Shown here: in pieces, positions 10,021-58,200 of the stretch
Position numbering within the stretch: position 1 is the first letter of the stretch
Layout of the letters: the number at the start of each line of letters is the position of its first letter
Source: Psammoneis japonica
Lineage: Eukaryota
Direction: 5' to 3'
DNA: 64,000 bases
Assembly: GCA_008632985.1 (NCBI GenBank)
Contig: QPGO01000236.1
Location: 1-64,000 of the forward strand
The notes under the pieces: model-generated
The model's database searches: none
Seen by the model: the letters and a program-made list of their open reading frames with translations, nothing else
Told to the model about the DNA's origin: nothing
Translations under genes and position numbers: made by a program

Positions 10021-10157
10021 GGCAGGGCCCAAAAGGGCCCAAAATCTGCGCTGTGTGTGCTCTGCCGCGTGCGTGCGTGGCGACACTGCGAACCGCGACA
10101 TCCCAAACAAAACAAACTTGCCCAAACGCAGAAATAATATTGAAGAAAAAATCGACG

Positions 10158-17821: not shown

Positions 17822-17828
17822 CTCCCCC
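17822..17828 (-). promoter_or_regulatory. Polypurine tract of the Gypsy element
   Basis: Plus-strand CTCCCCC, i.e. GGGGGAG on the minus strand, abutting the TG start of the 3' LTR. Confidence 0.8.
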
Positions 17829-17858
17829 ATGATCAGGGCCGTTAAGTGACAGGATGTC

Positions 17859-21531: not shown

Positions 21532-21567
21532 TGCATTGAAACCACCTGTGTCGTGTCGGCCCCCTTC

Positions 21568-22642: not shown

Positions 22643-22703
22643 TTCGTAGTTTCGTTTCTGCAGATTTCGTCACCTCGCACAACATGCGGGAGCAATGTTG
22701 CTG

Positions 22704-23136
22704 TGCCCTGTGCATGCACTGGGCGCTGAAAAGAAGATGTGTTACGACTTTGTCGTTGTGAAAATTATGAGCCAGTTTAGAGCAGAGAAAATGGGATCGT
22801 GCGAATGGGGAATCTTGCCAAATCCCCATTCGTTCGCATTTGGATCGCATCAAATCGATCGTGCGTTCACATTGTGGATCGTGTGAATCAAGCCATCACG
22901 CGCTGTGCACGAGTGATGTCATCGTGTGGAATCATGCTGCCATCGTGGGCCAGACGATGGGCTAGTGTGCTTCACACGGATGCTCTCTTGGCATCCTTCT
23001 GGAATTGCCTAAGACCTAGAGCCACGCCCTCCTGTGGTCATGCTTCCCAGGTGCGTGTTAACAACACCACGTTGCCACGCACAAGAGGCTCATGCACGGT
23101 CTCGCCGTGTTGTCCAGTGGTGAGGCATGCTGCACA
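22704..23136 (-). repeat. Gypsy 5' LTR (433 bp), the more heavily mutated copy
   Basis: Alignment to 17389-17821. Confidence 0.95.
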
Positions 23137-23320
23137 ACATCATGCCACAGCATTGACTGTGGTTGTGGTGGTGATGCAGGCTCAGCATGAAACCATCTTG
23201 TGACACACAGTGGCCTTCGACACTGATTCTGGGCCAGTTGGGGTTGACAAAAGAGCAACAGGTTGCGTGCCTGATTGCATGGAAGACTTCATTGGTGAAC
23301 TCCAAGATTGCAACAGAGCC
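23137..23320 (+). mobile_element. Continuation of the Copia relic (protease-like segment) after the Gypsy insertion
   Basis: FDTDSGPVGVDKRATGCV..CMEDFIGEL resembles the FDTDS..IG.DN motif of diatom Copia proteases. Confidence 0.5.
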
Positions 23321-34210: not shown

Positions 34211-34793
34211 AATCTCGCGGATGGTCTCTGTTGGAGACTGTTGGAAATGGTGAATTAAAAGTTCAAACACCGAAATTGGTTCCTCCTCTTTTAGGTGGAA
34301 CTCTCTAGATCGAAGTCTGAAACCGAAAGATTTTGGATTGCCGCCCTCGCTACTATCAGAAAATAGAGCCATGACGATTGCCTGCACCAATCATTTTGCT
34401 GCATTTTGCGCCGGGCGTTCGAATTAATTATAACACACAACGGCCATTTCGGTGCGCACTTTTGCGCGACCCACGCGACATGACTGACATGCGTTAGTGC
34501 GTGGTGCTGGTTGTTTTGCTTCTGACCGTTCTGTCTTCTGTGAGGTTTCATGAGGCTGTCTGTGCACATTGATGTTGTCTAGTTGTGCATGTTGATGTTG
34601 TCCAAGGCAAGCTGCGTTGGATTAAGTGAGTGTGGAAATGTGCGAAATTTGCGCATTGTTGCAGTTTCTTTGCCAAACAGTTGGCCCTCATTTGTGGCCA
34701 CACTCAATCCGCGGCGGCTCAAGTGAAAGTCCATGTGCATGCATTTTGCGCATTGATGCGGTTGTCTTTGCTAAATGGTCATTTGCAATTTGC

Positions 34794-35264
34794 TCAATTC
34801 CATTCTTTCTGGCCACACTTCTTCTGAAGGGACTTTGCTTGCTCCTTCTCCTGCTCCGCCATCTCCTCCTCGGTGAAAAATCTCCCCGACCGCTGTGGAA
34901 TCGCCGCTGCATGTGCTGCCTTTAGCTCCTCCATGGTTGAATCATCCTTGGGCGCGACTGTTGTTTCCACATGATGACTGTCCACTGTCGTGTTGTCTTG
35001 CACAAGTGCAGAAGTGACATCAAAATTTCCCGAAGTGAGGTCAAACGCCGCTCTTGCTTCTTCCAAGGTAATCTCCTCTTCGTCTTCCTTGTTCATCAAT
35101 GACTGAAGAAGTTCCGCATGTGTCTGCACCTTTTTCTTGTCCTCACCAGTTTTCTTTGGCTCGTCTGCCTTCTTTGTTTGTTGTTGCAAATCCATGTTCT
35201 CTCTGTTGCTACGTTTTCTGTGAGGGTTGCGTTCGCGTTTCTTGGTTTGTTGGTTAAAATCCAT
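34794..35264 (-). pseudogene. Small charged ORF downstream of RepHel (copy A; copy B at 39622-40125), unknown function
   Basis: K/E-rich ORF of 156-167 aa preserved in both duplicate copies. Confidence 0.4.
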
Positions 35265-35410
35265 TCGACGTTGTGTGACACATGTGCAGATTTCTGCGCA
35301 ATGTGCTGATCTAATCGAAATGTTTTATTTTACGAAATTTCCGCATTTTTACGGTTGGGGTCGCTGGACAGTTGCACAGTGGTTGAGCATCCCAATCCAA
35401 TGTTTGCGCA

Positions 35411-38400: not shown

Positions 38401-39147
38401 TGTCTTTTAGGATGTGCTCAATCGTGCATTGAGCAGACGGTCCAGGCATCAACAAAGCAATGTTTGTGTTGCATGTCAGTTTTGATCTGCTCATTGCAGG
38501 GCACGACACGTTTTGAAAAGCATCGCACTTTCTCCTCTTCGGAACAACTTCCTTCACGCACCGACACGCAAAAGTCCCATCCCAGCTGAACCACTTTATC
38601 TGAGTGTCATCTGCGTTCCTCACCAAATCATTTGGACACGAAGCAGCTGGTTGCCTGTGACGGCAGTCACCCAGTTTGAGCTCCTCTCGTTTCCTTTTCC
38701 TTGACAGCGCGTCCAGTTCCTCGTGTGGGGTTTTTTTGCGCATTTTACGCAACTCTGCGCATTTGGGAAAACACGACTTCGTAACGTGCATGTGATGGTT
38801 GTAAGCTGCGTCCGGTGCACATGCCTCCATTGTCCCTTGCGGACCACTTCGCTGGCATTGCACACACATTGCTTTTAGTCGCTTTGCATGGTTGTCTGGA
38901 TAGCGAGTCAGGCCAGGTGCACAGTGCCGTGACTGTAAAAAGCTTTCTACAAACTCGACGTTTGTCCAGCACTTGGTGCAGTGACGACAATGAGCAAACA
39001 TTCCGTTCTTCGACTGCTGGCCGTCTTTGTGCCTCAGGTTTCTCAGCTGTTGGTCGTCTGCTGCTTTTGGAGAGGTGCGACACATTTTTGGCACTGTGCA
39101 GTCATGATCGAATGCTTCACGCAACGCACCAGTGCTGAAGTCCTCGC
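35411..39147 (-). pseudogene. Duplicated C-terminal part of Helitron RepHel (Rep motif 3 plus PIF1 helicase)
   Basis: Walker A HGAGGSGKS, LLVVDEISF, FAGDLRQLEPV, HRFKDD, QLPF..NNATAGHKLQG, WVYVVLSR. Confidence 0.92.
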
Positions 39148-40238
39148 ACCGAAAGATTTTTGGATTGCCACCCTCGCTGCTGTCAGAAAATAGAGCCATG
39201 ACGATTGCCTGCACCAATCATTTTGCTGCATTTTGCGCTGGGCGTTCGAATTAATTGTGACACACAACGGTCATTTCGGTGCACACTTTTGCGCGACCCA
39301 CGCGACATGACTGACATGCGTCAGTGCGTGGTGCTGGTTGTTTTGCTTCTGACCGTTCTGTCTTCTGTGAGGTTTCATGAGGCTGTCTGTGTACATTGAT
39401 GTTGTCCAGTTGTGCATGTTGATGTTGTCTGAGGCAAGCTGCGTTGGATTGAGTGAGTGTGGAAATGTACGAAATTTACGCATTGTTGCAGTTTTCTTTG
39501 CCAAATGGTCAGTCCTCATTTGTGGCCATGCTCAATCCGCGGCGGCTCAAGTGAAAGTCCATGTGCATGCATTTTGCGCATTGATGCGGTTGTCTTTGCC
39601 AAACAGTTGTTTGTAATTTGCTCAATTCCATTCTTTCTGGCCACACTTCTTCTGAAGGGACTTTGCTTGCTCCTTCTCCTGCTCCGCCATCTCCTCCTCG
39701 GTGAAAAATCTCCCCGACCGCTGTGGAATCGCCGCTGCATGTGCTGCCTTTAGCTCCTCCATGGTTGAGTCATCCTTGGGCGCGACTGTTGTTTCCACAT
39801 GATGACTGTCCACTGTCGTGTTGTCTTGCACAAGTGCAGAAGTGACATCAAAATTTCCCGAAGTGAGGTCAAACGCCGCTCTTGCTTCTTCCAAGGCAAT
39901 CTCCTCTTTGTCTTCCTCATTCATCAATGACTGGAGAAGTTCCACATGTGTCTGCACCTTTTTCTTGTCCTCACCAGTTTTCTTTGGCTCGTCTGCCTTC
40001 TTTGTTTGTTGTTGCAAATCCATGTTTTCTCTGTTGCTACGTTTTCTGTGACGGTTGCGTTCGCGTTTCTTGGTTTGTTGGTTAAAATCCATTCGACGTT
40101 GTGTGACGCATGTGTGGATTTCCACGCAATGTGCTGATCCAATCGAAACATTTTATTTTACGAAATTTCCGCATTTTTACGGTTGGGGTCGCCAGACAGT
40201 TGCACAGTGGTTGAGCATCCTAATCCAATGTTTGCGTG

Positions 40239-43200
40239 CTACATTGACATTTCTGCGCACTGTTGCTGAGAAAAACACGTGGCGCTTCTCTCCTTCATGA
40301 GTCTTGTCAAGGCTTCGTAGCCTTCTGGGACCTTGCATTTTTGCAGGTCCTTGCTCAGTGGCTTTCGCATGAACAGCCCTTCTCTGGTCTTTACTCTGGA
40401 GAGCACAACATGCACCCAATTCTGAGTGTAGCTCCAAGAGTGTACAAACAACTGCGGGACTCCACTCCCTTGCAGTTTGTGCCCTGCAGTGGCATTGTTG
40501 ATGACAAACGGCAGCTGGGTTGCCTTCAGTTGGAAAGTGTGCCTTTGTTTGTTGCCTTCTTCTAAAATTAGGCTGGGCTTGGCGATGCAAGCCCTGAAAG
40601 CATTTGTTTTTGGCTCAACTAAAAACTTCGCGGGGTCGATGCTTTTGTTGCAGTGTTCCAACACAACATGGTCTACCTGACTGGCAAGCACAGCAGGAAT
40701 GCCAATGTTGTTGTCTAAAGTCACCAGTCTTGGCTCCTGTCCTGGTTTGAGAACGACCTTGTCAACAGTGGCTTGCATTCCGTTTGCTTGACCGTTTGCT
40801 GCATTTTTGTTGAAAGGTGTCATGACTCTGCATCCTCTGTAAATTCGTAAGACTGGACCCATTCTTCCTGATTGCATGATGACGTCTCCTTCACCACAGT
40901 TGTTCCAGAAGCTGTTGCAAGCCGGAAATGGTTGGTGGAGTCTCGTGCCATTCTGCACCTGCAAGTCGTCACTGAAAATCAACATTGAGTCAAGGACGTC
41001 TCCATCTCTTCCATGCAGTGTTTTTACTCTTTTTTCGAATGGGCCAGTGTCAATTGCATCTCTGTCCTTATTTGCGCACGCAGCACAGCGGAGGTCACTG
41101 GGCAGATCATCTTCGTTCTGAACTGCTCGTTCGTTGATGTGCTCTGTGTCGTCAACTGCAATCTCACCAGTGCGGAATCTCTCAAGCAGTTTTCCCCATG
41201 ATGGATCGTCTTTAAACCTGTGCACACCACGAAGTTCTATGTGGCAGTTGATCCACTCGTGAAACTCGGGACACACATCTTTGCACAGTGGTTTCACTCC
41301 TTTTCCGACTGGTTCTAGTTGCCTGAGGTCACCTGCGAAAACAATGTTCATGCCACCGCACGGCTTGCTTGATTCACTCTTCAACACTGTCAAATTCTCA
41401 TGGAGTTTTTCTAGTTCTCTCTTGCTTGCAAAAGAAATCTCGTCCACCACCAAAAGTCTCGTGTCTGACCATGCTTCAATTTGCTCTTCGGTTGTTTGCT
41501 TTCTTCTCATGAGGCATGCAACTCGGTGGATTGTGTCCCCTTTGAGAACAGTGGCAGCCACTCCGGTCAGTGCAGTCACTCTGATTGTGCTTGTTGTGAA
41601 CGGCTGCTCAACAAGCGAGCAATGCTCTCTTCCGCATTCCACGACGACGAGGTCCATCATGGTTGATTTGCCACTTCCACCTGCACCATGTAAAAAACAC
41701 ACAAGTTGCAACGTTCTACGTCTTTGCACTTCCACGAGTTTCTTCAATCGGCGAAGTTTGTTGCGAATTCGTGTCTGCTGTTTCTCCCATTGAGTCCATT
41801 GCGTGACGTCTCGTCTTGAAGAGCGTCTTGATGGCAAGTGAGCACAAAGGTTCCTGCTAGAATTTCAAAGGCACGCTGCTGTTGCCTGTCCAGTCTTGCT
41901 TTCCTAGCCCAGTCTACGACACTTGCTGCAGATCCGTTTGCTTGACGTACATCGACGTGTTCTTCCAGACCTGTTGTGTCCTCAAACGACCTTCTTGTTC
42001 TTTGCGTTCTAGTCAGTGTCACTCGAACAATGTCGTCTCTTGACAGTGGTCTGCTGTGGATGTGTTGTTGCACTCCTTCATTCTGGTCTTCCTCGTCGGT
42101 GTCATCGCCGCCCTCTAGATTCTCAAAAAGTTGTCGTTCATTGACCTGGCTTTCCTCGTTTGGTGGGTCAGTGTGCATGTCTGCCAAGCATTTGCAACCA
42201 CCCATGTGTGGACCTTTCTGTCTTGCACGTTCACCGCTCAAATGCGCAGGAACAACTGCTTGGTCGCTCAACCCAATGTCATCGTCTTCTGGCTGCTCTG
42301 CCATTTCTTCCAAGAGTGCATCCAGCAGTTGACCCTGAACGGCGCCTGAAAGACCTTCTTCCTTGTCACTTTCGCAACAGTCAAACGCAACGTCAGCAGG
42401 TCTAAATTGCTCTGTCTTTCTTTGCAGATCGTCAGATGCACTTTTGAGACGAAGGCAGTTGGACTTAGCATCCTGCAGGTTCTGCAAGAAGTTCAAGTTT
42501 TCCTCTGTGATGACACCGGCTGCTGCGGAGAGCTGGAATTCACGCAGGCATGCATGGGTTGTTGGTTTGAGTTCCGTCATTGTTCTGCAAGGCGCAAACA
42601 AGGCCAATGCCAACTTGCAGTGCAATTCTTTGTCTAGTGTTGTTGGTTGCTGCGGATTCACAAGGCAACTGCCAAACTTGGCTGCATCAGGAAAATCACA
42701 CTGAAGTGCTTTTGACAATCGCGGTTGCTGTCGCTGTCTGACACCTTGAAGAAACTTGTTCTTTGTTGAATTGTGAGACGGGTGCCTGTGCGCTCTGTTG
42801 TCGAACATCATCATGCCGTGTTCGTTTTTCCTTGTGTTGCAAAGAACTTCGCATTCACTAAAAAACGCAAACAGACTGAGAATCTCCAGTGCTGTTGGAC
42901 GACATGGGCAGTGCAAGGCCTGGCATTGGAAGAACGGTGTGTCGCCAAAATGGGCTACAGTCGCAGACACTTCGTCTCTTTCTAGTGTGCTGACAATGTC
43001 TTTCAAGGGGCACCATGTGGTCAAATGAGATTCGATGAAACGGCTTCCGTTCCTTGTTGTGTAAGACGCAAGTGGTGGTCCAATGACGTTCGTCTTGTTG
43101 TGCGAGTGAGCACCCCATGTGAGACGTCTGATTGCTTCCGATGCATCAGATGCGTGTTTCCGTAATTCCGTCGCCATCCTGTTCGTAGTTCGAAGCACTT

Positions 43201-45892
43201 CGTCGTACGATGCAGTGTCATCTTTCTGGGTGTCTTTTAGGATGCACTCAATCGTGCATTGAGCAGACGGTCCAGGCATCAACAAAGCAATGTTTGTGTT
43301 GCATGTCAGTTTTGATCTGCTCATTGCAGGGCACAACACATTTCGAAAAGCATCGCACTTTCTCCTCTTCGGAACAACTTCCTTCACGCACCGATGCGCA
43401 AAAGTCCCATCCCAGCTGAACCACTTTATCTGAGTGTCATCTGCGTTCCTTGCTGAATTGTTTGGACACGAAGCAGCTGGTTGCCTGTGACGGCAGTCAC
43501 CCAGTTTGAGCTCCTCTCGTTTCCTTTTCCTTGACAGCGCGTCCAGTTCCTCGTGTGGGGTTTTTTTGCGCATTTTACGTAACTCTGCGCATTTGGGAAA
43601 ACACGACTTCGTAACGTGCATGTGATGGTTGTAAGCTGCGTCCGGTGTGTGTGCCTCCATTGTCCCTTGCGGACCACTTCGCTGGCATTGTACACACATT
43701 GCTTTCAGTTGCTTTGCGTGGTCATCTGGATAGCGAGTCAGGCCAGGCACACGGTGCCGTGACTGTAAAAAGCTTTCTACAAACTCGACGTTTGTCCAGC
43801 ACTTGGTGCAGTGACGACAACAAGCAAACATTCCGTTCTTCGACTGCTGGCCGTCTTTGTGCCTCAGGTTTCTTAGCTGTTGGTCGTCTGCCACTTTTGG
43901 AGAGGTGCGACACATTTTTGGTGCTGTGCAGTCATGATCGAATGCTTCACGCAACGCGTTGGTGCTGAAGTCCTCGCTGCAGATTGATTCCGTGCTGCAG
44001 ATCTTCTGAACTGTGTTGGCAAGGCACTCAGCACCTTCGCGTCGGATCTGTCTTGTTGGCAAATGCAGTTTCTCTCTTGCATTGTTGATTGATGCGAACC
44101 AGATCTGCATGTGTCCGTGTGCTGTTGGACGTCCCTGCTCCTCAACTGCGGCTAAAAATGCGGCTGGCCCGCCAATGTAGAAGTTAAAGTTTTCTCTTGG
44201 TTGGTTGGCACTCAGATCCCAACCCACTGCCTCTTCCATTGCAATGTCAAACAAGCACTCGAATACAAAGGCTGTTAGACCGGGAAACTTTAGACGCAGT
44301 TCATTGCGTTGCTTGGCCCTGCTAGCAAGAATTTCGTCCGTCAGTTGTGTCACGTCTTCGTTTGGGTCCAGGATGACACCCGAGTGCAGTTGCACAAGAA
44401 ACAAATTTGCATCGTCCGGACTGACGGTTAAGAAAATGCCACCCTGACCAAAATGATGCTGACAAGTTTCGGCGTTTCTCCTCATTTTCTTTGCTGCTTC
44501 GTTGCTGTGTGGCAGAGACGCAGATGCAACGTCGAGTGCACGCAAAAAGTGGTGCCCGAGTCCACAATCTCTTCTCTCGCCCAAGTTGCGATCACAAACA
44601 GCTCCATCCACATCATCCACTGTCAGTTCGTTTGCAAACTGTGCAGCCTGATTCTTGTCCCTGACTTTCCACCCTGCGCTCTGCAGCATCCTTTGCTTCA
44701 TTGTCAAGTTGCAGCACATTAACACGAAGAGCTGCTCGTGGAAGTGAGGCTGGGAAATCCGTGCCAAGTGGTCGGCACAGTGTGCAAGGTTGGTGCCATC
44801 TGCAAGACTTCCGTCTTTCTTCATTCTCGTCTCATTGATTCCTCCTCTGCCAAAAGGAAACTGCAGCAGACACGCGTTGATGAAGTTGTTGCCTTTGAAA
44901 TCACTCGCAGATTCTTTAGACAACTGTGCTTGCACCTCTAAATCAAATCCGTTGGCAGCAGCTTCGTGCACAAGATCTTTGAAGCAGTCCAGGTTGCGCT
45001 GACCACCGGTCGCAGGAGACATGGTTCCATCAGGAAAGCAAGTGTGAAATGACTCTGAGGTCTCAACATTCGCATTTTCTCCTTCCTCTTCGCCGGTGCT
45101 GTCGACAAGTGCGGGATTCCGCAGATTGCGCCTGACTTCGTCTAGATTTGTCTGTTGGTGCACCCACTCTTGGTCATGGCACAACAGCCATTCCATCGCC
45201 CTCAGTGTGCAGTGCGTCCTAATTCTGTTCTTTGAACGTGCAAGTTGTCTTTGCTCCAGAGTCATCTTTCCAGTCATCAGTGCAATCACATTCTGATGTA
45301 AATTCAGTGCGTCGAAGTGCACGACAGTTCTTACGATGCTTTGCATCTTGACTTTGTAGCACGTCAGACTTCCCTGAAGCTTCTTCTGTTTGCCGCCAAG
45401 GCAACTGAAGCAGTGTCCGCATGTTTTCACTGGTGTGAGCATTGCCAATTCTACTTTGGTTAGAGACAACAGTTTGTGCGGTGGGGCACCGAAACAGCAG
45501 TTGTTCGCTGTCGCGTACATTGGCGTGACGGCTCTTCCCAGGCTTCTTCGGCATTCGCTGCAGCAAGTGAATCCGTCGACGCGTCGTCTGTCTTCCTGCA
45601 CTGCGCATTGGGCGCGGGGAGAAAGCAGCAGGTCTTTGATCCAATCAGCATCTTCATGCTCTACAGTGTGGCAGGACTTGAGACGATCAGATGCGCTGTT
45701 CCAGTCTGAAGGGGTGAGTGAGTTTCTTGCTGATTCCAATGTTTCGAGCAGCAAGTGGCAAACTTCTCTAGGTTTCAGCAGAACGTCACAGACTGAACAT
45801 GCGTGTGGTCTAAATTCTCCGTCTCCATGCAGACAAAGCATCTCAAACTTTCTGTTGATTGCACTGCAAACACGGGAGTTGGCCTCGTCCAT
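40239..45892 (-). pseudogene. Helitron Rep-helicase (DUF6570-like, HUH Rep, PIF1), ~1880 aa, one frameshift near 41755, hypermutated
   Basis: N-terminal Cys cluster and ANNCCFGAPP..L..L..VE..ML; FPFGRGG; FLTVSPDD; HUH motif VEEQGRPTAHGHMQIW; motif 3 QCTIECILK (expected QYTIKYILK); full set of PIF1 motifs. Element termini not identified. Confidence 0.92.
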
Positions 45893-45974
45893 TTTAATTT
45901 AAGCTGACACTTTAACTCGACAAATTTCAAGAAGTTGCTCAGCAAAAATGGTTGTTTTTTCGGTGCGATCACCG

Positions 45975-46660
45975 TGAAGCTGCGATCGGTGCTGTCCAAT
46001 CACCACAGCGATGTGTGTTTTCTCGCCACCTGCAGCACTGCGACTGGTGTCGTCCAGTCACCGCAGTGGTTCTGTCCAGTTGATCAACGAACCACGTCGG
46101 TGCTGCCCGTTCACCGCAGCGCTGTGTCGTCTTCTCACAACCTGTGCAATCAGGTCGCTGTGAGCACTGCGACTGGTGCTGTCCAGTCACCGCAGCCGAG
46201 TCAATTGGTTGCTTGACGAACTGCGTCGGTGCCACCAGATCACCGCAGTGTTGTGTCGTGTTCTCACAACCTGTGCGATCAGGTCTCTGTGAGAGCTGCG
46301 ACTGGTGTCGTCCAGTCACTGCAGCTGAGCTTGTGCGTTGTCTCACAACCTACGTTGCGAGGTGCAGCGCTGTGTTGTTCACTCACAACCTGTGCAATCA
46401 GGTCGCTGTGAGAGCTGCGACTGGTGTCATCCAGTCACCGCAGCCAAGTGAATTGGTTGCTTGACGAACTGCGTCGGTGCCATCCGATCACCGCAGCGTT
46501 GTGTCGTGTTCTCACAACCTGTGCGACCAGGTCTCTGTGAGAGCTGTGACTGGTGTTGTCCAGTCACCGCAGCTGAGCTTGTGCGTTGTCTCACAACCTG
46601 CGTTGCCAGGTCACTGTGAGAACTGAGAACTGCGATCGGTGTGGCCCAATCACCACAGTT
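45975..46660. repeat. Array of hairpin-bearing repeats upstream of RepHel
   Basis: CTGCGACTGGTGTCGTCCAGTCACCGCAG-like units at 46038, 46167, 46296, 46415 and 46544 (spacing 129, 129, 119, 129). Confidence 0.85.
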
Positions 46661-47465
46661 GGATGCTTTTCGTTTCCCTTTGCGCAAAGGTTCTGTCACA
46701 AAAAAGTGAGACGAAAGTGTGCCTCTTTCACCTCGACGGAAGAGTGATGTGTGCGTTCCTCCCACATCCTTCTTTGTGCCAGACGTGCGATGTCCTGCTT
46801 AGTTTCGTCGACGTTGAACATCCCATGGGACAAGATCTGGATCTTGTTCAAGTTCTTTCGACCATCTGCTCTGAACATTCCATGGGGCAAGATTCGGATC
46901 TTGTTCAAGTTGTTTCGGCAATCTTGGTGGTGGGCGCAGCTTTGCGCAAATTCCGCAGAATCACGCTTTGACGAGTGGCGGGGCAGTTGAGTCAGTCATG
47001 TGGCAATGACAATGCGATTGACGTCATTCGTGTTTCCAAAGTGCGCGCGAATCCTCCAAATGGGTGATGGGCCCACCTCAGCTAACCACCGGCACAGCAT
47101 GTAGTGACAGCGATGGCGTCGACCGTTTGGCGACTAGATTTTGTGCGCGATGGCCGCGCGGCAGCAACGGCTGAAACACACACGAAGCACGGACGGAATT
47201 GCACGTGATTTTGCGCATTTTCAGCAAACTTGGTATGACTTTGCGTGCTCCGATCCTTGCATCTGTTTTGTTCAAATTGAATCCATGCACCACTTGTGAG
47301 TGCTGACACCTGGAAGGTCACCTTGTTGCAGTTCGACGTGTTTGAATCTAGTTGCTGACGTTGCCAGTTCTCCTTGGCATGATGTGCGCAGCTCTGCTGG
47401 GTCTTTCTTGGCACTTCTGAACGACCGCACTTTTTGTTCCCACAATTTCTCTCCGACTGATTCGA

Positions 47466-48335
47466 TGGCACGCAAAAGAAACACAACGACCTCCCCGGCT
47501 GCGAAAGCCAAAGTCGCCGAAACCAAACAGAAGAAGGCAAAGATGAAGTTTTCTGATGCTCTGTTGAAGAAACTAAGTCCGCCCCGCAAGACCAACGGCT
47601 TGACCGACAACGACCTTAAACCGGAAGACTGCCTTGCCAAGCACGGGTTCAAGCTTTCCAAATCCGCCGGTTCTGATGATGGCAGCCATTCCGACAAGGA
47701 CGCCCTCCTGCGCTGCGCCACCGTCACTGTCGGCCGCAAGAAAGGCGTCGTTTTCGTCTCCAAGCCAAGAATCCACTTTTGACCAATGTTTGGTCGGAGA
47801 AGGTTCTGTTTGACAACCTTCGCAGCAGGACTCCGTGGGCGGTTCAAGTCGGATTCCACCCTCTCGCTGGCAGGTGGGTTCACGAGGGCGAGTTGCAGAC
47901 GAACGCCAAGAACTGCACCGTGCGTCTCTTCTTCATCTTCCTCGAAGAAGTCCCAACCGATGCTAAAGTGCGCGGCCTCGGGAAGGCATTGCGAAGCAGC
48001 TGAACGATGACCCTGAGAACAACACCGAGGTCTTCGTTGAAGACGACTTCTTCTGGATGAAGGATGCTGTTTGGTCCGAAGTGATCGGCAACGAGGCGGC
48101 GCTTGCCGAGCTTCAGAAGGAAGGTGGTCAGTTTCACATCGGTTGGTGCGCCCAAAACAAGAACTTGCTTCACAGTTGCTTCTACGAGGGGTCGTTGCCT
48201 ATGGAACTCTGTCGTCTCATTGGAGCTCTGGCAGAAGAAGCTGGAGAAGAGGCCGACGATGATGTTGAGCTCAACTGCGAAGTTGACCTGAACGTCGATG
48301 ACGACTTGGTGCTTCAGGACAGCGATGAAGACTGA
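47466..48335 (+). pseudogene. Hypothetical protein gene, hypermutated and broken
   Basis: MARKRNTTTSPAAKAK basic start at 47466, protein-like composition and acidic C-terminus ending 48335, followed by a T-rich tract; interrupted by TGA stops. Confidence 0.45.
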
Positions 48336-48423
48336 GTTGTTTTTTTTTTTTGCCGGTGCAGTGTAAATTTGTAAATGTTTTGCAAACTAAGTGTCGATTG
48401 CAACTCAGCTTTCCTCTGTCTCT

Positions 48424-49389
48424 TCAAGTGTGTGCCATCTCCGACGACAACTTTACGTTACCGCGAAGCAATGGCGAATTGAGTGGAGTGGCTAGCGTGT
48501 GACGTCTGGCACAGTGACAGCAAAAAAACAGTTCAGTTGAGTTCTTAAGTAAAATTGGCCATTTCGCGACGGGTGGACACTTCCGTTCCAAGTGTGTCGG
48601 AGTGGGACGTCGCATGTGCTGGCTGGTTGACTGAGAAGTCTCCTCTTTCTTGGTGCACTTGTGGAAGACGAGATGTTTCACGTCTCTGCTGTGCCACAAA
48701 AAGTCGCCATCATGGCAATCCGCCGTGAAGGACTCGTACATCCACTCTCCCGCGTACGACGCGAACAGCGGATCTAGCGCCACCACCACGGTCCCAGCAC
48801 GACACAACTTCGAAAGCATCGCCTCTGCCTTCTGCTGTGTGTTCTTGTCGTCAACCATGCGGGAGTTGCAGTTGTTGAAGAACACCTTGAGTCCTTTCTT
48901 TTTCCACAAAGGAGCCAGCCTCTCGTCCAAGAATGACTTGTTGATCAACTCTAACCCGCCGTTCGAGCGAAGGCCAGCATGATGAGCCCAACGCACAGCC
49001 TCTTGGTGACGATCGTGGTCGGCCTCGATGCTCACCACGGTGCAACGGCGACGAAGTAACTTGAGCCCGATGCTGGGTCCGGCAACTCCCCCGCCCATGT
49101 CGACAGATGCATCGCAGGTGTGATTCACGCCAAGAAGGCATTCGTTCAAAAACACTTCGCTGCTCAAAGCGAAGCCAACTTCGCCGCCGTGCGAAGATCC
49201 GCTTCCGTCTCTGGAGACACGCCTGCTCTGGAACGCGGAGTCCGGAGCCGTTTGAAGACAAAACTCCCTGACACTTCTGCAACGATGGTTCATCGCATCC
49301 AACCTTGTGGCAACATCAACCTTGCTTGCAGCGGGTTCGACCAGACGACGCGTTTCCAAACCAAACTGTGACGTGCGCAGAATGCGCAA
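48424..49389 (-). pseudogene. DOT1-like class I SAM-dependent methyltransferase
   Basis: VDMGGGVAG (motif I), VVSIEADHDRH..A, INKSFLD, VFFNN and L.RAGTVVVAL.PL match the DOT1 order D(L/M)G.G.G / GIE...R / vifvNN / G..ivs. Confidence 0.6.
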
Positions 49390-49740
49390 AATTACCGTCG
49401 CGCCCTCTGCGCACGCGAAATTTTCAAACGCGGTGTGCTGCCTCTACCTGCGCATGGAGCGACGTGTGAAGTCATTTTAAACAGATGTGCAGACGCGTTG
49501 AAATGACAAGACGCCTTCAGGCGGTAAAATTTGTTTTGAATCTCGGACTGCTTCTCATCATCACCGTACTTGTACATCCGTGTAATTCAAACGCACGAGC
49601 TGGCACGGCACGTGACGCACTTCTACGCGAGAACTCGCACTGAGATTGCCGTGGGATGATCCTCCCTCCGCGGAGACAAAAACAAGGCGACAACACTTCC
49701 GTCATTGTGTTTTGAAACACATTTCAAATTGAGACACACC

Positions 49741-51172
49741 ATGTCACAACTGCCTCGTGCCTCGCTGCATCATCCTCCCAATGACAAGCACTTGTCGCAA
49801 TCGAGTTACAGCCGGTCTCGACAGTGTGGGGGTTTGGGACGTGCAGCTCGCAGCCCGACAACAAGCAAATGCTTCTCGCGATTGGGTTTCGACCCCACTC
49901 CCCTGGAGTCCGCCGGTCCCTGTCAACAGAGTTTTGCTTTGGGTGCTCTTGAGGCAACGGAAAGCAGACACATCTCTCGATTGGGTTTTGACCCCACTCC
50001 CCTGGAGTCCGCCGGTCCCTGTCGACAGAGTTCTGCTTTGGGCACTGTTGAGACGACAGTGACAGTGTCAAGCAGCGGAACATTTGCCGGCAAGTTCGCA
50101 CACACATTCTCTGCGAACACCGCATCGTCAATGTGCACCAGGACACGAGAACGTGTTGAGGTCTCAACCGCCACTTCGTAAGGCCCACCGCAGCCGCAGG
50201 CGAATCCGCAGCCGCGCCAGCAGGAAAACATCCAAGATTGCTCGCCTCGTTCCACTCGCACCGTGCGCCACTGAGAGTCTCTCCGTGCACTGCGCAGCTG
50301 GCCACACTCTGGTTTGTGACGGCGACTACACTCAGCCTGCACCACCTTGTCTTGCTGACATTGACTTTGCCGAATTGGCTCCTCTGCTCGTCTGTGACCC
50401 TGTGCTCGATCTGAAGCCTTTCTTTGGCTTGGACGGTTGCCGCTGCGACAACACCTGCACCCTGCTGCCGCATTCTGCTGTGGTGTTCAGCTCCCCCAAC
50501 CCAGCAGAACTAGTTGCTCAGTGCCGAGCGCTCGAAGCACTAGAATGCTGCACCGCCCAGTCCACCGTGCGCGGCAAACAACGTGTTACCTTCATGGAGA
50601 CGGACAGGAGCAAGCATTCCACGATTGGCCTGGCTGCCACGAGGGACGCTCGAATTTCTTGCAAGCAGCCTGGCACAGCTGACCAACACACTCACCACCT
50701 CACCAGACTTCTTTCACGCATGGAGCACCTTGTCAATGAGCGCGTGGACCATGCCATCCTTGAGGGTGTCACTCGTGTCAAAAAGTTTCACAACTGGAAA
50801 TCCCTGGCAAGGTCAGATGGCATTTTCTCCTCTCTGGCGGCTGGGCGCAATGTCTTCCTCAACGCCCATCGGGACCAGGACTTCTTCCTGTCAGCAGTCA
50901 CCATGGTGGGAGTCCCTCCGTCCGGCAGCTGCAACATGAATGACGGGATTGTGGCACACTTCTGCTTCCCTGCCGAAGGCATCTCCGTTGCACTCCGGCT
51001 TGGTGATGTCATCATTTTTAACCCCACCAAGTGCCACTGCATCTCCAGCAGGACAAACTCAAACGACGAGTTCTTCTGCATGTCTCTCTGCCTGAAGAGT
51101 GCTGCAGTGGGCAAGAATGACAATTCAATCCCCCTTTCTCTAGAGGAAGAGACCATTCTCAGGCGACTGTGA
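49741..51172 (+). pseudogene. 2OG-Fe(II) dioxygenase, TET/JBP-like
   Basis: LNAHRDQD (HxD at 50867-50875), VALRLGDVIIFNPTKCHC (distal His at 51035), CMSLCLK (expected SLYLK). Main ORF 50084-51172; N-terminus from Met 49741 includes a ~100-bp tandem duplication and a frameshift. Confidence 0.6.
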
Positions 51173-51394
51173 CAGCACAAAATAACTTGCTAAATTTGCA
51201 TAAATTTGCTGACTTTCTGTGCTCAGGCGACTGTGCAGGTGCCTGCCAATTTGCTGGATTTGCACAAATTTGCCGACTTTCTGTTCTTCCTCGTTCCCAT
51301 TTTTCGAACCACAACTGGGGCTACGCCTTTCCAACTAATGCCACAGTTTCGCTGAAAAACACCAACACACTGTGCTGCTAATTTGCAGAGCACA

Positions 51395-52881
51395 CTACAC
51401 GGCAAACGTTTTGCCAGACGCAGAGCTTCTCCCCCCCGACTTGGGGAGTGGACGTGATTTCTTCTTCCGATTCATGGCACCCGACGTCGCCTTCCTCTTC
51501 TTCTTCTTCTTCTCCGATTCGTCCAAGTTGCATCTGCAGAGAAATTCCTCCCCGGGCATGATTCGCTTTGTGACTGCCAAGCACCCGTCGTTGTAGAACT
51601 CGCAGTTGTTGTCCGCGTGTTGGCTTGCCTTGATCTTCTTCTTGTCCTTGAATGACTCGGTGGCATCGTTCACGCAGTGCATTCTGAGGTAGAGTGGATG
51701 GGAATTCTTGTTCCCTGGACCGCTAAAATCAAGCGGTTTTGGCTCCACTGTGACGCAGCAGCCCTCGCTGTCATGGATGGTGGAGCAGCACACGCTGTGG
51801 TCTTCTCCAAACTTGCTGTCGTGGTCGCACCACGAGCAGCTCCTCGTCGCACCGGGCACCCTGGGGCCCACGTAGATTCCAACCGCACTGCCTTTCTGGA
51901 ACTGGCGCAAAGCAAAAAAACCAATGCCTGCGCCCCTCCGTTGCGATGCGCGCAGCTCGCCCACCTCCACCTCCTTGGGGCCTGCGGAGCGAACGGACTT
52001 TTCGAGGCAAAACAACGCAGGTTAAGTGACACGGCGCCTCATCCAAATGTGCACACTTCTGCACTTGCTCTCTTCACGAGATGGACCAGTGCGAGCGACC
52101 ACCCCGCTTCGAAAGCCTCGACGGCGGTCTTGAACACTTTGTTGCTCTTCGGTGTCAAGTCTGGGATGCCCCTCTCGCCGACTTCCGTGCGGCACCTCCA
52201 CACCCACTTGCAGTGTTCGCCGTGAGCATTCGCGACGGCTTCAGGGTCGCTCCTGATGCACCCCAGTTCTCCCAGCGCAGGGAACCAGAGGTCGGGATTG
52301 TTCGGCGCATCCTTCATCAGGCACATGGACTCCTGGAATTTATCGGATTTTTCGTGCCGCAACACCCAGTCCCACAAGTCGAATGACGGATCGTTGGGGT
52401 CCAGAAATTGCTTTCCTTCTTCTTCCTCTTCCGCCGTTGCTTTCGGGACCACTTTGGCCGCCGGCTTGGCTGCCTCCTCGCTTTTGCCGCTGCAAAAAGG
52501 CAGGACCTCCGGTTTCACAAAGGTGGCCTGATCACCCACCAACTCGATCTTGCAACCGGCCTTGAGGAGCTGCTCGGCGGTGCAACCCAGCTGCTGTGCT
52601 TCATTCCAACCACAGATTTGAAAGGTTGGCTCCGGCGGCACGGCTTTCTCACTCTTTTCAGTTTGGGGCTGCGCCGGCTTCTCCGACATCCTTGCGCATT
52701 CGGACTCAACGGACACACCCTCGGCACTTCCCTCGGCGCCAAGTGCAGTCATGGCAGCTGCCGCCGTGCCTTCGGCGCCCGTGAGTTCTGCCATGACTTC
52801 TGGAGCTGCTGCATCCTCTGCTTTGCCAGACGCAACGATGTTGTCCTCCACCATTCTAGCGCCGTGATGACAGAGCTGCAC
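51395..52881 (-). pseudogene. SET-domain lysine methyltransferase (SET in 51395-52015; probable N-terminus 52039-52881)
   Basis: GAGIGFFALRQFQKGSAVGIYVG, MHCVND (expected HYxN(D/H)), NCEF, TKRIMPGEEFLCRCN (expected GEE....Y), basic tail. Confidence 0.8.
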
Positions 52882-54252
52882 TCACTGCTGTGTGGTGTGC
52901 TGCTCCATTCCAGCCGTTGGCGATCCACATCCTTCTGCGCACGCAAACGCATGACACTTCGCACCAAATTCCACGTGGCGCGTCTGCACCTGTCTGCGTC
53001 CGTCTTCACTGCTGTGCGCACTACGGCACTGCAGCGCACCCTTTCAAACCTTCATCAATGTTCATTTTTTCCTTCCTTTTCCTTTTCTCTTCTTCTTCTA
53101 TCTGGCTGGGAGGAACTGCTGGACAGCCGGCCTTGTTTTATGAAGGCGATGAGGACTGTTTGAGAAACAAGGCAGCATCAGTTGCCCTTTGTCAAGGGTG
53201 GTCGGTTGCTGCTTTTTTTAGCTCGAATTCAGCCGAACAGCTCGTGTTTTGCATGATTTTTCCTGAATTTCACCGTGCTTCACCGTGAAAACAACAAGCC
53301 ACAAGTCTGTGACGGAGGTGGCCCGTCTGCCAACTCTCATTTGTTTTGTGTTTGTCATGTGTCAAAGATTGCACACACATGAAAAGTTGGCAGACGGCAA
53401 ACTGCGTTTGTGAGAAATGTCGACATTGCCGTCATCGTCGTGCTTCGATCGCGGTGCATGATGTTCTCGTTTCATGCGCGATTGGGGGTGAATGCAAACA
53501 ATTTTTGCACTCAAAAATGAACACTGCAAATGTCCTTGTTCAAATGCCACGGCAATTCTAGGACAAACACGGGGATGACCCCCTGCTTCAATGGAGTGGC
53601 GCACTTTCAAAAATTCGGTGCGCATGCCTGATCTGCACAAAACACACGCATGTAAAAATGCACTGCAAAATTCGTAGAGATGTTTGTTTGAATTCACTTC
53701 ACACACAAACATCACAGCAACGATGCCGGCGACATTGGCAATGGATGCACACAACAACGACAGCGGACTGGGAGGTTGTGATGCACCGAGACAACAACTG
53801 ACATGATGAGAAATGAGATGTCAATGTCAAATGACAATGATCGAGTTGTTTTGGGAGCTGGTTGAGCCATTGGTGACGAAGGGTTTTTGGCATGTGCAGC
53901 TTGGTGCTGAAATCACGCAGAGGTTTTGGCCGCGGTGGGACTGTTGTTTTTCACTTTTTTTGGGGTGCATTTTGTGTTTTCTCGGTCGACCGCATTGATG
54001 AAGCACTGAAGTGAGCATGCGACAACAGATTTTGACGAAAAGTTGGATTTTCATTCATCATGGAGGATCAGCACGGGGTTTTTAACACGGTGAAGCACGG
54101 GGGGACGATTTTTTCACCAGATTTGCAAGATCCTGTCTCCCACCCAATTCGCGTGCGTGATGTTAGTGGATTGATGTATTTTTCACATGCAAGAAGTGCA
54201 ACAACGTCGACATGCCCGACATGACAGACTTCCCGTGCTGTTGTCGTAATGA

Positions 54253-55250
54253 GTGAAATCTTGTTGTGTTCGGTGCGCAGAGTCCAGTGCCATTTGTCCG
54301 CATGCAGACAAGCGCCAGCAGCAACTTGACGAAACCCAAGACGAAGACACCGCTTTTGTTGCCATTGTGTTTGAAAGACTTCCAATGGACTGCAAGGCAA
54401 AGATGTTCTCCAATCTTTCTTTGGATGATTTAAGTGCAGTGGCTGTTTGCAGCAGGGGGTGCAATGAAGCGCGCAACAATGAATCGCTCAATCGAGAACG
54501 AATCGCTGCCATTTTCTTCACCAACAAGAGCACTTCAGACTCATTCCGCAATGTCATCAGGAAAGCAAATGAGAACAATGCCTTTGGAGAAATCTGTGCT
54601 GCTCTTGCAATCAGTGGAGTGGAAAAATGTCGCACTCGCCCTCTTGGTTTTGGACAACTGCCACAAATCCGAAAGTTGGCAATTTCCACTTCAGATCCCA
54701 ACAACAACACGTCAACTCGATGGGACGATACAGAATCCCTTTCCACATTTGTTCAGATGTGCCCAAACGCTCCTGAACTAGAACTAAATGGCATCAAGGC
54801 ATCCGGAGCATTTTGGAGAACAACCTCACATGCCCTTTTGAGCGCAAGGAGGGTCGTTTTGAATCATTGCACCGTTTCCACAGTTCACACAGCAGACGCT
54901 GCTCCGCCGAGCATGACTGACCTTTGCTTCAACAACACTTTATTCGAGAGTAGACATGGGGCACCATTTCGTGACGAAAGATTTTTTTACTTCATTCCTC
55001 TGACAATCTTGAGCGTGTGAGTGTCGCCAATGCATTGCATCCGCATTGGGGTCACAGGTCAGTTCTGAGTGGTCGTCACTGGTGGTGTGCTTGTGCTTTT
55101 GAAGGACCATTGCCTCTAGAGTTCATTGTCAACATTGTTCTTGTTCAAAGCCGGCCCACTCTTTGTTGGCTTAGAAGTGATGTGCTGTCAGCTGACAACC
55201 TGGCCATGTTGCAGAACAAGAGACCCGACATTGAGTTCATGTCGAAATGA
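54253..55250 (+). pseudogene. F-box/LRR-like protein
   Basis: FERLPMDCKAKMFSNLSLDDLSAVAVCSRG is an F-box consensus; CPNAPELEL and a C-terminal LCWLRSD..L..DNLAMLQNKRPDIEF resemble LRR-type diatom F-box proteins. Confidence 0.65.
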
Positions 55251-55299
55251 TGATGATGCAGCGCACGCCAGGCGTGCAGTGGGTGGGCCCTCTGGTGTG

Positions 55300-58200
55300 T
55301 GGAGTGCAGCAGCGCGACCTCTTGCATGGCAAGAGGAGACATCACATGACACAAAACAGTTGCCACAGACACACGCACAAATGGTCTAATCATGTTTTCT
55401 TGTCCATGGCTGCACAACAACAGATGATCAGCTGTGGTGGCGATCGATGGATTTGTCGTCGCGCTGCGCAGAAACGGGAAAAGATTTGTGCGAGGTCCAA
55501 GTTTCTCAAAGCAACACAACCAACATTCAGCACACCAAAAATCTTGGCTGCCAACAATGAAGCCAAACCCTTCTGCTGCTGTTTGAACTCTGACTGCACA
55601 GGCAGCCCCAGCACAAGGCCCTGAGCAGAAAAGCCAGTCCCAGCGAAGTGGCCAAAAGTGCAGAAGAGCTGCTCAACACAAACCAAAGTGCAGTTGAGGG
55701 GTGCAAGCCAAGGCTTTGGCTTCTTGCACCTCTGTGGTGTCACAGCCTCTGAGACTGTCCCACAGCTTGCCCAGCCAATTCGGCCACCTTGGGTGGGCGG
55801 CACCTCTTGCTTCTGCTCAACTTTCCTGCTGCTGCCAGCTGAAGCAACAAAACAGAACATCAAACATCCACTGATGTCCTGCTCCAGGACTCTGGCACAC
55901 TGCATCCATGCTGCACACAACCCTTTGTCAAAAAAGACCCTGACAATGTCATGAGCTGCATGCCCAAACACACACGCCCACATCACCAACCAACTTTTGT
56001 CAATCACTTGTGCTCTGACAATTTGCCAATGAGCTGCTGACCTGAAGTTCCAAGCCTTCCACTGGAAGTTGTTGTTCAGTGTGCAAAAGGGCTGCCCCAC
56101 AGATTTTGGAGCAAGACTCAATTTTTGAAAAATCATGTGGGTCGCAGAAATCAGCATCCACAGGCAGGCCTGCAGCACAGCAACAAGCTCATTCCATCAT
56201 GCCGCAGCTGTCACCATGAAAAAGCTCTTGTTGCACTTTTTTTCTTGTTTCCTTGTTTCCTTGTTCATTGCCCCAGCTGGTGCCACAGAGACTGGCTCAT
56301 GAACAGCCCAAAACAGCAGTGCACTTGCCAATGGAGGTGCTGCTCATAAGTTGCAGTGTGACAACTTCAGCTCTGTTGCAGATCTGCAGTCTTTTGGACT
56401 GGCACTCCTTGTGACTCTGAAGATGAAGAGATTGTGATGTTGAAAAAAAACTTGTTGAGGCTCTTGGCCAACAAACATGCCAAAGTCAGGCACTCTTTTT
56501 CATCCCCTTTTTTCTCAAGAATTTGAGAGCTGGCTTTTTGTGCAGCAGGTCAACACTTTTGCCGTGGCACTCAACATTTGTTGGTGCATGTCAGCAAATG
56601 GCATGATTTCCTTTGACACCTTTGCATCCCCAGAGACACAAAAGTTGTCCAAGCTGCTGTGTCGGTGCTCTTTTTGCTCTGTGGAGGAGAAGGCACACTC
56701 AGCATCACAGCTGCATTGACAAAAGTGACAAGAGCAAAGATGGGGTGCCCGCTGATGATGTCAATCTTTGGAGCACCAAGGGGTGGCTCAAGCCACAGAC
56801 TCAAATGGAGGTGTGCTGTTGCGTGCAGGGTGTGGTTGTGGGACAGCCCAAAAATGTCTTTGCTCAAAAGAAACCCCAACCGGCAACTTGACCCCAGCTG
56901 GCAAAGAAGGAAAAAGGGCAGGAGAGACAACTGCAAAGCTCTCAGACTGGGGCTGGGCAAGATGAATGACCACTTCAAACTCTCAAGTGTTTTGTTCCAA
57001 GCTGTTCAAGGTTGGGGTGGGAATGACCAAGGTGACATGTGCCGCAGGTGCATGCCTGGCTTTGACAGGCGGCTGCAAAAACTTGTGGGACAAGCACCAA
57101 AAACATTGCAAAGATGAGCTGGCCAGCTGTGGGTGCTGCCTCACCCAGACAAACAAACAGGTCAAGAGCGTGCTCTTTGCCACTTGCAGCAATGCACACA
57201 GCAACAATGCATGTTGCTCTCCTTTGATGGCTTGCTGGATCTTGAGCAGCACTTTCAAAACATGCTTTGGGTGCAGTCATGAACACATGAAGGTTTGTCT
57301 GCAGTGCCTTGTGGATCAAGTGAAGCACTGTTCTTGCCAAGTTCTTCTAAAATTTGATCCATCATTGTCTGCAATGCCTGGAAAGTCAGCCAGAAGAAAA
57401 AACCAGCAGAGCACTGCTGTGTGCAACCCCCCAAGAGAGGTGCACACTCCTCTCTGACCAAAGTGGGTTTGAAAGCTGGCACCTTGGATGATGAAAAGCT
57501 GTTGTCTTGGACAATGTTGGCATGACAGAGTCATGCAGCTGCGCACCATGCAGACTTTCTTGTTGAAAGTGTGCCCCCTGGAGGGCATGGCCAAAAAGAC
57601 TTGCAAGATTTTTTCTGTCTGGGGGCTCAACAGCATTGCTGCCAGTTGACAGCCTCTTTGCAAGGAATGCCACAAAAAGAGTGGCAAAGTTGGTTTTGGC
57701 CCCTCTGCTCAGAACAGCAACACTCGCAGGTCTTTTGAAGGTCTTTGACAATCTCCTCTTGTGCAGTTGCAGTGTGAGCAGCCAGTGCTTGGCCCTCTTT
57801 TAAAAAATCCCTGCTGTGACCCATCTCAAGAGCATCACTTTTGTGTGCCATCTGTTGTTGGTGAGGAGGCTGCAGCCCAAATCTAAAGTGCTGGGTCCTC
57901 TGTGACCAAGCTCAGCAGGTCTTTCTCCATGAGCACATGCCAACAAATGCCTTTTCGTTGCTGAGGTGCTTGCACTCAATTCTTGCATGTGATGCACAGC
58001 ACACCAGCCCAACATTTTTGGCTGCTTTGGATGCCGTCTGCTGAACCTCGCCAAGCAAGTCATGCTGCTGTTGTTGACACATCCCTTGCAGAGCTGTTGG
58101 CAGTCACATCGTTTCCATCAACAGTGAGGTCTGTTGTCACCATGACAACAAACACAATTTCTGCTGCAGCACGCCATTCTTGCACCGGCAATTGTCTTTG

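Follow-up and report, generated by a model that had tools for sequence, protein, structure and literature searches.

TET/JBP-type dioxygenase genes are carried by Helitron1 elements of Puccinia graminis and the Pezizales and by Helitron2 of Agaricus bisporus (PMC12730594), as well as by Helitron2-2_cRei and Helitron2-3_cRei of Chlamydomonas (10.1101/2022.06.16.496473), and the role proposed for them is escape from methylation-based silencing. SET genes are described on proto-Helentron-Pi of Phytophthora infestans and on SET-bearing Helentrons of P. cambivora and P. capsici (PMC4067079), and PMC12730594 cites further SET genes on HarbingerS and MuDR elements. DOT1 and SMYD homologs have been described in Mimiviridae (10.1101/2021.11.30.470311). 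The locus compared with these systems lies in a 64,000-nucleotide stretch of DNA (positions 1 to 64,000 of contig QPGO01000236.1, assembly GCA_008632985.1, Psammoneis japonica), referred to below as the window. At 39148–53583 the window contains a unit that we read, with a probability of roughly two in three, as one decayed copy of a many-copy, ~14.4-kb autonomous Helitron-type transposon whose cargo comprises a DOT1-like methyltransferase, a TET/JBP-like dioxygenase and a probable SET gene.

Like the fungal and Chlamydomonas elements, the window unit combines a RepHel transposon with its own TET/JBP-type accessory gene (PMC12730594, 10.1101/2022.06.16.496473). It differs from them in its host, which is probably a diatom, in a dioxygenase that is too divergent to reach the Pfam Tet_JBP cut-off, and in the DOT1-like and SET-like genes that accompany this dioxygenase. 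The window is eukaryotic, and the proteins closest to those it encodes belong to Seminavis robusta and to a Bacillariaceae metagenome-assembled genome. The proto-Helentron is likewise a stramenopile Helitron-type element with a SET protein and hypothetical proteins beside its Rep/Helicase, although its SET match is strong (E 3.4e-24, PMC4067079) whereas that of the window is weak. DOT1 is not mentioned in the accessible text of PMC12730594, and neither 'dioxygenase' nor 'DOT1' in that of PMC4067079; a literature search, with the supplementary tables of the cited papers outside its scope, found no DOT1-bearing Helitron and no report of the trio. An earlier note on this DNA, made from the sequence alone, had named no known case of this combination on a Helitron. 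The novelty lies in the DOT1-like gene and the triple combination; Helitrons with their own epigenetic enzymes, including TET/JBP and SET, are already known.

Extent and copies of the repeat unit

The features of the unit and of the partial copy that adjoins it are as follows.

39148–53583, minus strand: whole repeat unit, probably Helitron-type, with accessory genes, ~14.4 kb, delimited from contig depth, shared ends and the observed/expected ratio (o/e) of TpA
40242–45892, minus strand: RepHel gene, recognized from its Pfam domains, broken by a 1-nt deletion after 41755
45170–45526, minus strand: DUF6570 domain (E 5.9e-09, 36.9 bits, Pfam cut-off 24.3)
44108–44743, minus strand: Helitron_like_N (Rep) domain (E 3.2e-09, 37.7 bits, Pfam cut-off 28.9)
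41244–41702, minus strand: PIF1-like helicase core (E 4.5e-16, 59.6 bits, Pfam cut-off 25.9)
48571–49293, minus strand: compact DOT1-like methyltransferase gene, 241 residues, motifs VDMGGGVAG and FFNN
50390–51169, plus strand: domain of a probable TET/JBP-like 2-oxoglutarate (2OG)/Fe(II) dioxygenase, in open reading frame (ORF) 50063–51169, divergent from the methyltransferase, motif HRD...H
51398–52021, minus strand: probable SET-domain gene, domain at ~51536–51928, from three weak concordant signals
52042–52881, minus strand: open frame with no named family, directly upstream of the SET frame
53209–53583, minus strand: 5'-terminal segment of the unit, matched by a solo fragment at 5103–5481 (plus strand; 70% identity, inverted)
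46038–46611, no strand: tandem repeat array just upstream of RepHel with a 129/248-bp period (4.3 copies of 129 bp by Tandem Repeats Finder; also by self-BLAST)
49874–50052, no strand: 99-bp tandem repeat within the 1.1 kb of intergenic DNA that separates the divergent methyltransferase and dioxygenase genes
34322–39147, minus strand: 5'-truncated tandem second copy, equal to 39148–43977 at 95.8% identity over 4831 bp and directly abutting it

RepHel and the three enzyme genes, which lie within 7 kb upstream of it with the dioxygenase gene in the divergent orientation, all fall inside 40239–53100, as the earlier note had placed them. The RepHel gene is spread over two minus-strand ORFs, 41747–45898 with DUF6570 and Helitron_like_N and 40242–41864 with PIF1, which are out of frame because one base is gone after 41755; the deletion is evident against the lower tandem copy and against other genomic copies. 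Since the N-terminus reads ...IKMDEANS, the start is probably at 45892. The fusion of a Rep (HUH/Y) nuclease with a PIF1-type helicase that marks a Helitron is present, and the lower tandem copy has both parts in a single open frame (35414–39217, C-terminal Rep and PIF1, the latter at 55.6 bits) that is intact at the position of the missing base. The HGH (HUH-type) motif of the window RepHel aligns with that of a metagenomic RepHel (locus L001, described below).

The repetition of the unit was gauged by placing on the window those contigs of the sequencing run that are at least 80% alike, which gave 4719 pieces (1326 at ≥99% likeness, 1517 at 95–99%, 1384 at 90–95% and 492 below 90%). Summed word depth was 1688–5426 in all 26 bins from 37000 to 53925, with 1703–5426 in the cargo bins and 1709–4799 in the RepHel bins; summed contig depth is not a copy number and is read here only as meaning that RepHel and cargo are repeated to a similarly high degree. 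Depth fell to 996 at 53926–54576 and to 93–224 in the last three bins (54577–56500), where near-perfect single contigs lie at a depth of 88–106, so that the pile-up from 37000 to ~53900 stands at ~20–50 times the flank level. Nineteen contigs stop at 53583 and have continuations unlike each other, and the alignment of the solo fragment at 5103–5481 begins at ~53580, matching this point. On both grounds the 5' end is placed at ~53583 and the unit at ~14.4 kb, and because of the similar high depth and the contig ends at 53583 RepHel and cargo are read as one repeat unit.

At the other side the 3' end is common to the two tandem copies. On the minus strand both finish ...CAATCCAAAA(A)TCTTTCGGT, beyond which they part: the upper copy enters internal Rep sequence of the lower copy, and the lower copy enters flank DNA with near-normal TA content. 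Positions 39148 and 34322 are therefore taken as the 3' ends of the full copy and of the 5'-truncated copy, respectively. Many dispersed copies with common ends are thus indicated by contig pieces, depth and ends, an indirect indication that comes from contigs and not from full second copies; no second copy of the cargo genes was found inside the window, nor were terminal inverted repeats of the unit. The earlier proposal of a single element gains from the uniform depth, the contig ends and the shared 3' end, with a unit (~39148–53583) larger than the span first suggested. The 99-bp repeat varies in copy number among other copies, with joints at 49741/49826. In the tandem pair, the full copy runs from its 3' end straight into an internal Rep position of the truncated copy, and a similar join, from 39171 to 49485 with 4 extra letters, occurs in one contig from elsewhere in the genome; the element may form such joins, between its 3' end and an internal point, repeatedly.

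The accessory enzymes

The product of the methyltransferase gene is 54% identical to protein P0002 over all 244 amino acids of the latter. An exhaustive HMMER search with P0002 returned 24 proteins at E≤0.001, and 25 members were aligned. Pfam DOT1 (PF08123) is the commonest family among them, matching 11 of the 25 at E≤0.1 (best E 5e-08); in a separate scan of 17 members it was found in five at E≤0.01, of which three reach the 23-bit cut-off (P0024 at 33.2, P0005 at 29.6 and P0007 at 23.0 bits). The window protein and P0002 themselves gave no direct PF08123 match in the Pfam scan. When the 25-member profile was run against all PDB sequences, the best 20 distinct matches were all H3K79 methyltransferases (E 2.5e-12 to 2e-08), followed by a PrmA-like or archaeal lysine methyltransferase at 1.3e-07. 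An AlphaFold model of P0002 built from the family alignment has a predicted local distance difference test score (pLDDT) of 86.5 and a predicted template modelling (TM) score of 0.87, and from it a DOT1-type class I S-adenosylmethionine (SAM) methyltransferase fold is predicted: ranks 1–21 among the Foldseek matches listed are all Dot1/DOT1L (E from 5.4e-09, TMq 0.59–0.66), and COMT, at rank 22 with TMq 0.53, is the earliest match of another fold, a modest margin for DOT1.

The assignment of this enzyme as DOT1-like, made in the earlier note, is thus well supported on three sides: the family profile, the Pfam matches of relatives, and structure. The DOT1/DOT1L proteins (PF08123; PDB 1nw3, 1u2z, 7k6p and the small chains 9ne1 and 8fjm), the best match of the window family by each of these routes, have the class I SAM fold in common with it, and the G-x-G-x-G and 'NN' motifs, which we take to be the DOT1 motifs, are kept. 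In contrast to DOT1/DOT1L, the window family has only ~244 residues and is transposon-borne, and the P0002-family protein spans about half of DOT1L (TMt 0.42–0.51). By analogy, H3K79 methylation and nucleosome binding are putative activities of the window enzyme. Three DOT1-like relatives, P0003, P0004 (from a Bacillariaceae metagenome-assembled genome) and P0006, are larger, at 600–640 residues with the DOT1-like part N-terminal, and P0003 and P0006 have a second weak methyltransferase-like match near residue 400.

The dioxygenase ORF (50063–51169) is 35% identical (E 1.6e-28) to the C-terminal 270 residues of a Seminavis robusta protein (P0001) and 30–39% identical to ORFs of three metagenomic loci (L001, L002 and L003). 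Residues H160, D162, H216 and R221 are invariant in all five aligned sequences; by analogy with known enzymes we take the first three to be the iron triad and the last to be the 2OG-binding arginine, residues that in TET/JBP enzymes sit on a double-stranded beta-helix. In a protein atlas queried with residues 330–560 of the Seminavis homolog, Tet_JBP clusters came first (feature score 0.96, 201 of 256 features shared) and made up 23 of the 30 nearest clusters of the dioxygenase homolog, and the atlas model of P0001 has a TM score of 0.72 to a cluster in which 95% of the members are Tet_JBP. Pfam Tet_JBP (PF12851) matched one of the five dioxygenase members and not the window protein, and searches of the PDB (phmmer and profile), PHROGs and NCBIfam gave no usable match. 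A tblastn search of a phage collection returned a single match at E 3, and PF12851 was found in none of 401 prokaryote genomes of one phylum and in none of 14 control genomes. Atlas features, atlas structure and the invariant motif give moderate support for placing the enzyme, probably, in the TET/JBP superfamily, so the label given in the earlier note is favoured by similarity and motif and falls short on the Pfam score, as detailed below. Oxidation of 5-methylcytosine (5mC) or thymine by the window enzyme is, by analogy, putative. No in-frame ATG precedes the conserved region, and the earliest Met in frame, residue 178, already lies within it; the start codon has therefore been lost in the window copy or lies in another exon.

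A pattern scan of metagenome contigs had yielded the three dioxygenase loci, two of which (L001 and L002) are long enough to judge linkage, and in both a RepHel gene lies beside the dioxygenase at a distance of ~0.7–1.9 kb. In L001, DUF6570, Helitron_like_N and PIF1 at 1661–7508 are followed on the same strand by the dioxygenase ORF at 8177–10084; in L002, a DUF6570/PIF1 RepHel at 13776–6529 is accompanied by the dioxygenase at 3315–4583 on the opposite strand. The pairing is old, since the RepHel proteins of the two loci are only 24–30% identical to that of the window. Linkage to RepHel elsewhere, which would be expected of a single element, accordingly holds for the dioxygenase family and was not found for the DOT1-like and SET genes outside the host genome. 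The methyltransferase-family hidden Markov model, run on L001–L003 and the window, found the window's own ORF only. Long ORFs without a Pfam family also stand beside the RepHel–dioxygenase pairs (233–3187, plus strand, and 4942–5877, minus strand, in L002; 5–946, minus strand, in L001), and these may be further, different cargo.

The frame at 51398–52021 matches Pfam SET (PF00856) over profile positions 1–102 of 105 with E 0.026 and 15.4 bits. Its best PDB phmmer matches are the PR/SET domains of MECOM and PRDM16 (E 0.7–0.8), and in the protein atlas it scores 0.95 with 164 shared features, SET accounting for 19 of the 30 nearest clusters. A search of 68 candidates yielded no homolog. SET domains are marked by a SET-N GxG motif, an NHxC-like motif and a C-terminal ELxxxY; the frame reads RRGAGIGFFA..., ...RMHCVND... 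and ...GEEFLCRC, and its last Cys stands at the position expected for Tyr, which fits a change of TAT/TAC to TGT/TGC. Taken together, the three weak but concordant signals make a SET identity probable from sequence, a qualified form of the earlier label. The ORF directly upstream (52042–52881) has no family in Pfam or PHROGs. Its TGA overlaps an ATG of the SET frame (ATGA, window 52039–52042), a TAA occurs in the SET frame six codons downstream of this overlap, and in one contig, derived from another copy, a G is inserted after 52023; this ORF and the SET frame may be one gene, with the ORF as its N-terminal part.

TpA hypermutation of the unit

All genes of the unit are depleted in TpA, with o/e values of 0.20 for RepHel, 0.14 for the methyltransferase, 0.13 for the dioxygenase, 0.14 for SET and 0.06 for ORF 52042–52881, compared with 0.35–0.70 in five stretches that do not belong to the unit. 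Of the TA dinucleotides expected, about four fifths are gone. Tyrosine makes up 0–0.8% of the residues in RepHel, the methyltransferase, the dioxygenase and ORF 52042–52881 and 1.4% in the SET frame, versus 1.7–3.7% in unmutated homologs, and at conserved Tyr columns the window proteins have His or Cys. The shared mutation load noticed earlier is therefore real, both in TpA and in tyrosine. Loss of TAA and TAG stops through this mutation makes the long open frames, which occur on both strands, partly an artefact and no evidence of intact genes.

The tandem copies permit the process to be read directly. They differ at 196 aligned mismatches, of which 194 are transitions, distributed as follows.

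CA against TG at the same dinucleotide: 116 mismatches (58 sites, an ancestral TA struck independently in each copy)
TA against CA or TG: 33 mismatches
CpG against CA or TG: 31 mismatches
Other difference classes: 16 mismatches

From these classes it follows that a TpA-specific process (TpA to CpA or TpG) acted after the tandem duplication, and the 149 of 196 differences that are TA-derived, together with the RepHel frameshift, bear out the earlier suggestion that this copy was inactivated by a mutator. The window copy is dead, through TpA mutation, the 1-nt frameshift in RepHel and a dioxygenase frame without a start codon. The 31 CpG-type differences hint that the element was once cytosine-methylated, which would make it a target for a TET-like enzyme. 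A strand bias of the mutator was considered and rejected, the coding-strand AT skew of RepHel (+0.18) being matched by that of the unmutated L001 (+0.21).

TpA-to-TpG/CpA hypermutation of integrated viral DNA has been reported in the chlorarachniophyte Bigelowiella natans (Mettrop et al., bioRxiv 10.64898/2026.01.13.699255), the only lineage for which TpA-specific DNA hypermutation is so far known to have been published. The signature there is likewise dinucleotide-specific, consists of strand-symmetric transitions and is confined to foreign or repeated DNA. Unlike in B. natans, the target here is a Helitron with neighbouring repeats in a probable diatom, and what is seen is a fossil signature and not a measured rate; the accessible text of that source makes no mention of diatoms.

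Several other parts of the window are of note. Further TpA-depleted blocks (o/e 0.01–0.38) lie at 4001–6000, 12001–17000, 20001–28000 and 53584–64000. The CG o/e is 0.13 at 14001–16000, 0.24 at 26001–28000 and 0.11 at 56001–58000, and 0.71–1.06 in the Helitron unit; the difference could reflect age, or less cytosine methylation of a TET-bearing element. A long terminal repeat retrotransposon at 17389–23136 (direct repeats 17389–17821 and 22704–23136, 94.5% identical) has a pol ORF (17862–20678, minus strand) with reverse transcriptase, RNase H and integrase domains and a TpA o/e of 0.56, far less mutated than its surroundings. ORF 5996–7945 (plus strand) contains a eukaryotic RNA-dependent RNA polymerase domain (PF05183, E 1.6e-10) and adjoins the solo Helitron 5' fragment at 5103–5481. 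An inverted repeat pair at 20653–21092 and 59397–59836 (89.5% identity, 440 bp, internal 112-bp sub-repeats) is probably another repeat family.

Alternative readings and proposed role

Several observations weigh against reading 39148–53583 as a single Helitron-type transposon with a chromatin-modifying cargo. Helitrons generally end in 5'-TC...CTRR-3' with a 3' hairpin, or in the asymmetric inverted repeats of the Helitron2 type, and insert without target duplication. The ends of the window unit read ~GGGGGTCATCCCC... (5') and ...AATCTTTCGGT (3'), and the canonical termini (5'-TC, CTRR-3' and 3' hairpin) were not seen at them; these ends are hypermutated, and two 5' and two 3' ends are readable. 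The synteny of cargo and RepHel within the host genome rests on depth and ends. No DOT1-like or SET gene was found by tblastn in L001, L002 or L003, so that these two genes are tied to RepHel in one genome only, and the dioxygenase, which lies 5' of RepHel and divergent from it in the window, lies 3' of RepHel in L001 and L002, so that gene order relative to RepHel is not conserved. At the level of the proteins, the best Pfam Tet_JBP score (13.7 bits, E 0.038, for the L001 homolog) is far from the cut-off of 34.9, the AlphaFold model of the dioxygenase, from a two-sequence alignment, has a pLDDT of 30.6, and the SET score lies under the Pfam cut-off of 22.4.

The unit could instead consist of two repeats side by side, namely a Helitron that ends at ~46000–46700 and, nested against it, an unrelated high-copy block at 46.7–53.6 kb that bears the three enzyme genes. 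Depth cannot separate one unit from two adjacent high-copy units, the GC content of the cargo (0.53–0.56) differs from that of RepHel (0.48–0.50), the tandem array sits between the two, and the order of genes around RepHel in L001 and L002 is different. However, neither a transposase nor another mobility gene came to light in 45.9–53.6 kb, the block of contig ends lies at 53583 with none near 46–47 kb among the ends listed, and the dioxygenase family is linked to RepHel in both informative foreign contigs, which makes two adjoining repeats unlikely. Ordinary host genes, or host fragments captured next to a Helitron insertion in a hypermutated repeat island, are very improbable. Helitrons often capture host fragments (PMC4067079), and the whole of 34–64 kb is TpA-depleted regardless of content, but the cargo shows the same 20–50-fold excess of summed depth as RepHel and the dioxygenase–RepHel link recurs in distant relatives, with RepHel proteins 24–30% identical. 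Nor do the cargo genes look like fragments, since the methyltransferase aligns over its full length with P0002 and the dioxygenase reaches the C-terminus of its homologs.

An equally small chance attaches to a giant-virus-like integrated remnant with SET, DOT1 and TET/JBP genes into which a Helitron was later inserted. The nearest atlas clusters of the SET and dioxygenase queries are largely viral (Nucleocytoviricota and Uroviricota), DOT1 and SMYD homologs occur in Mimiviridae (10.1101/2021.11.30.470311), and it was on integrated viral DNA that TpA hypermutation was first reported (10.64898/2026.01.13.699255). Against this, searches of a viral contig collection found no relative of the dioxygenase, the methyltransferase or RepHel, no viral hallmark gene was present among the ORFs scanned, and the repeat unit measures just ~14 kb with defined end points. 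A different kind of doubt concerns function, in that the genes may be true cargo and yet not a chromatin toolkit, with the DOT1-like enzyme acting on a non-histone or other substrate, the dioxygenase on protein or a small molecule, and the 'SET' frame not being a working gene. A methyltransferase of ~244 residues that spans only about half of DOT1L may lack the nucleosome-binding parts, archaeal and PrmA-like protein-lysine methyltransferases follow closely behind DOT1 in the PDB ranking, and neither Tet_JBP nor SET reaches its Pfam cut-off. Such a cargo is nevertheless rather unlikely, given that H3K79 methyltransferases are the best match by three methods, that in the atlas the dioxygenase falls among Tet_JBP clusters in both features and structure and the third frame among SET clusters, and that Helitron-type elements bearing TET/JBP or SET genes are already known (PMC12730594, PMC4067079).

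Taking the locus as a single Helitron-type transposon with its own cargo, we propose a unit made up of RepHel (DUF6570, Rep HUH and PIF1) and accessory genes upstream of it, including at least one ORF without a named family. In active copies the enzymes would act on the chromatin or DNA of the element itself and so resist host silencing or mark the element: the dioxygenase would oxidize 5mC, the DOT1-like enzyme would set an H3K79-type mark and the SET protein a lysine mark. The window copy was killed after the tandem 3' duplication had arisen, by conversion of TpA to CpA/TpG, which turned Tyr codons into His or Cys codons and destroyed TAA and TAG stops. A first transposon-borne DOT1-type enzyme that, together with TET/JBP-like and SET proteins, forms a counter-silencing kit directed at DNA methylation and histone marks, answered by the host with TpA hypermutation, is a tentative proposal to which we give roughly one chance in three.

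Transposons equipped with epigenetic enzymes of their own show what silencing marks count in a host and by what means mobile DNA evades them. With a DOT1-type enzyme in addition, and with all three enzymes combined on one Helitron, this theme would extend to diatoms, major primary producers in which chromatin-based control of transposons is little known. The enzymes would be compact natural proteins of ~244–300 residues suited to testing, and P0002 and the dioxygenase ORF of L001 are unmutated. The locus is also an internally controlled record of TpA hypermutation, with two tandem copies mutated independently in a lineage for which the process has not been published. If the proposal is true, diatoms host both sides of an undescribed epigenetic arms race.

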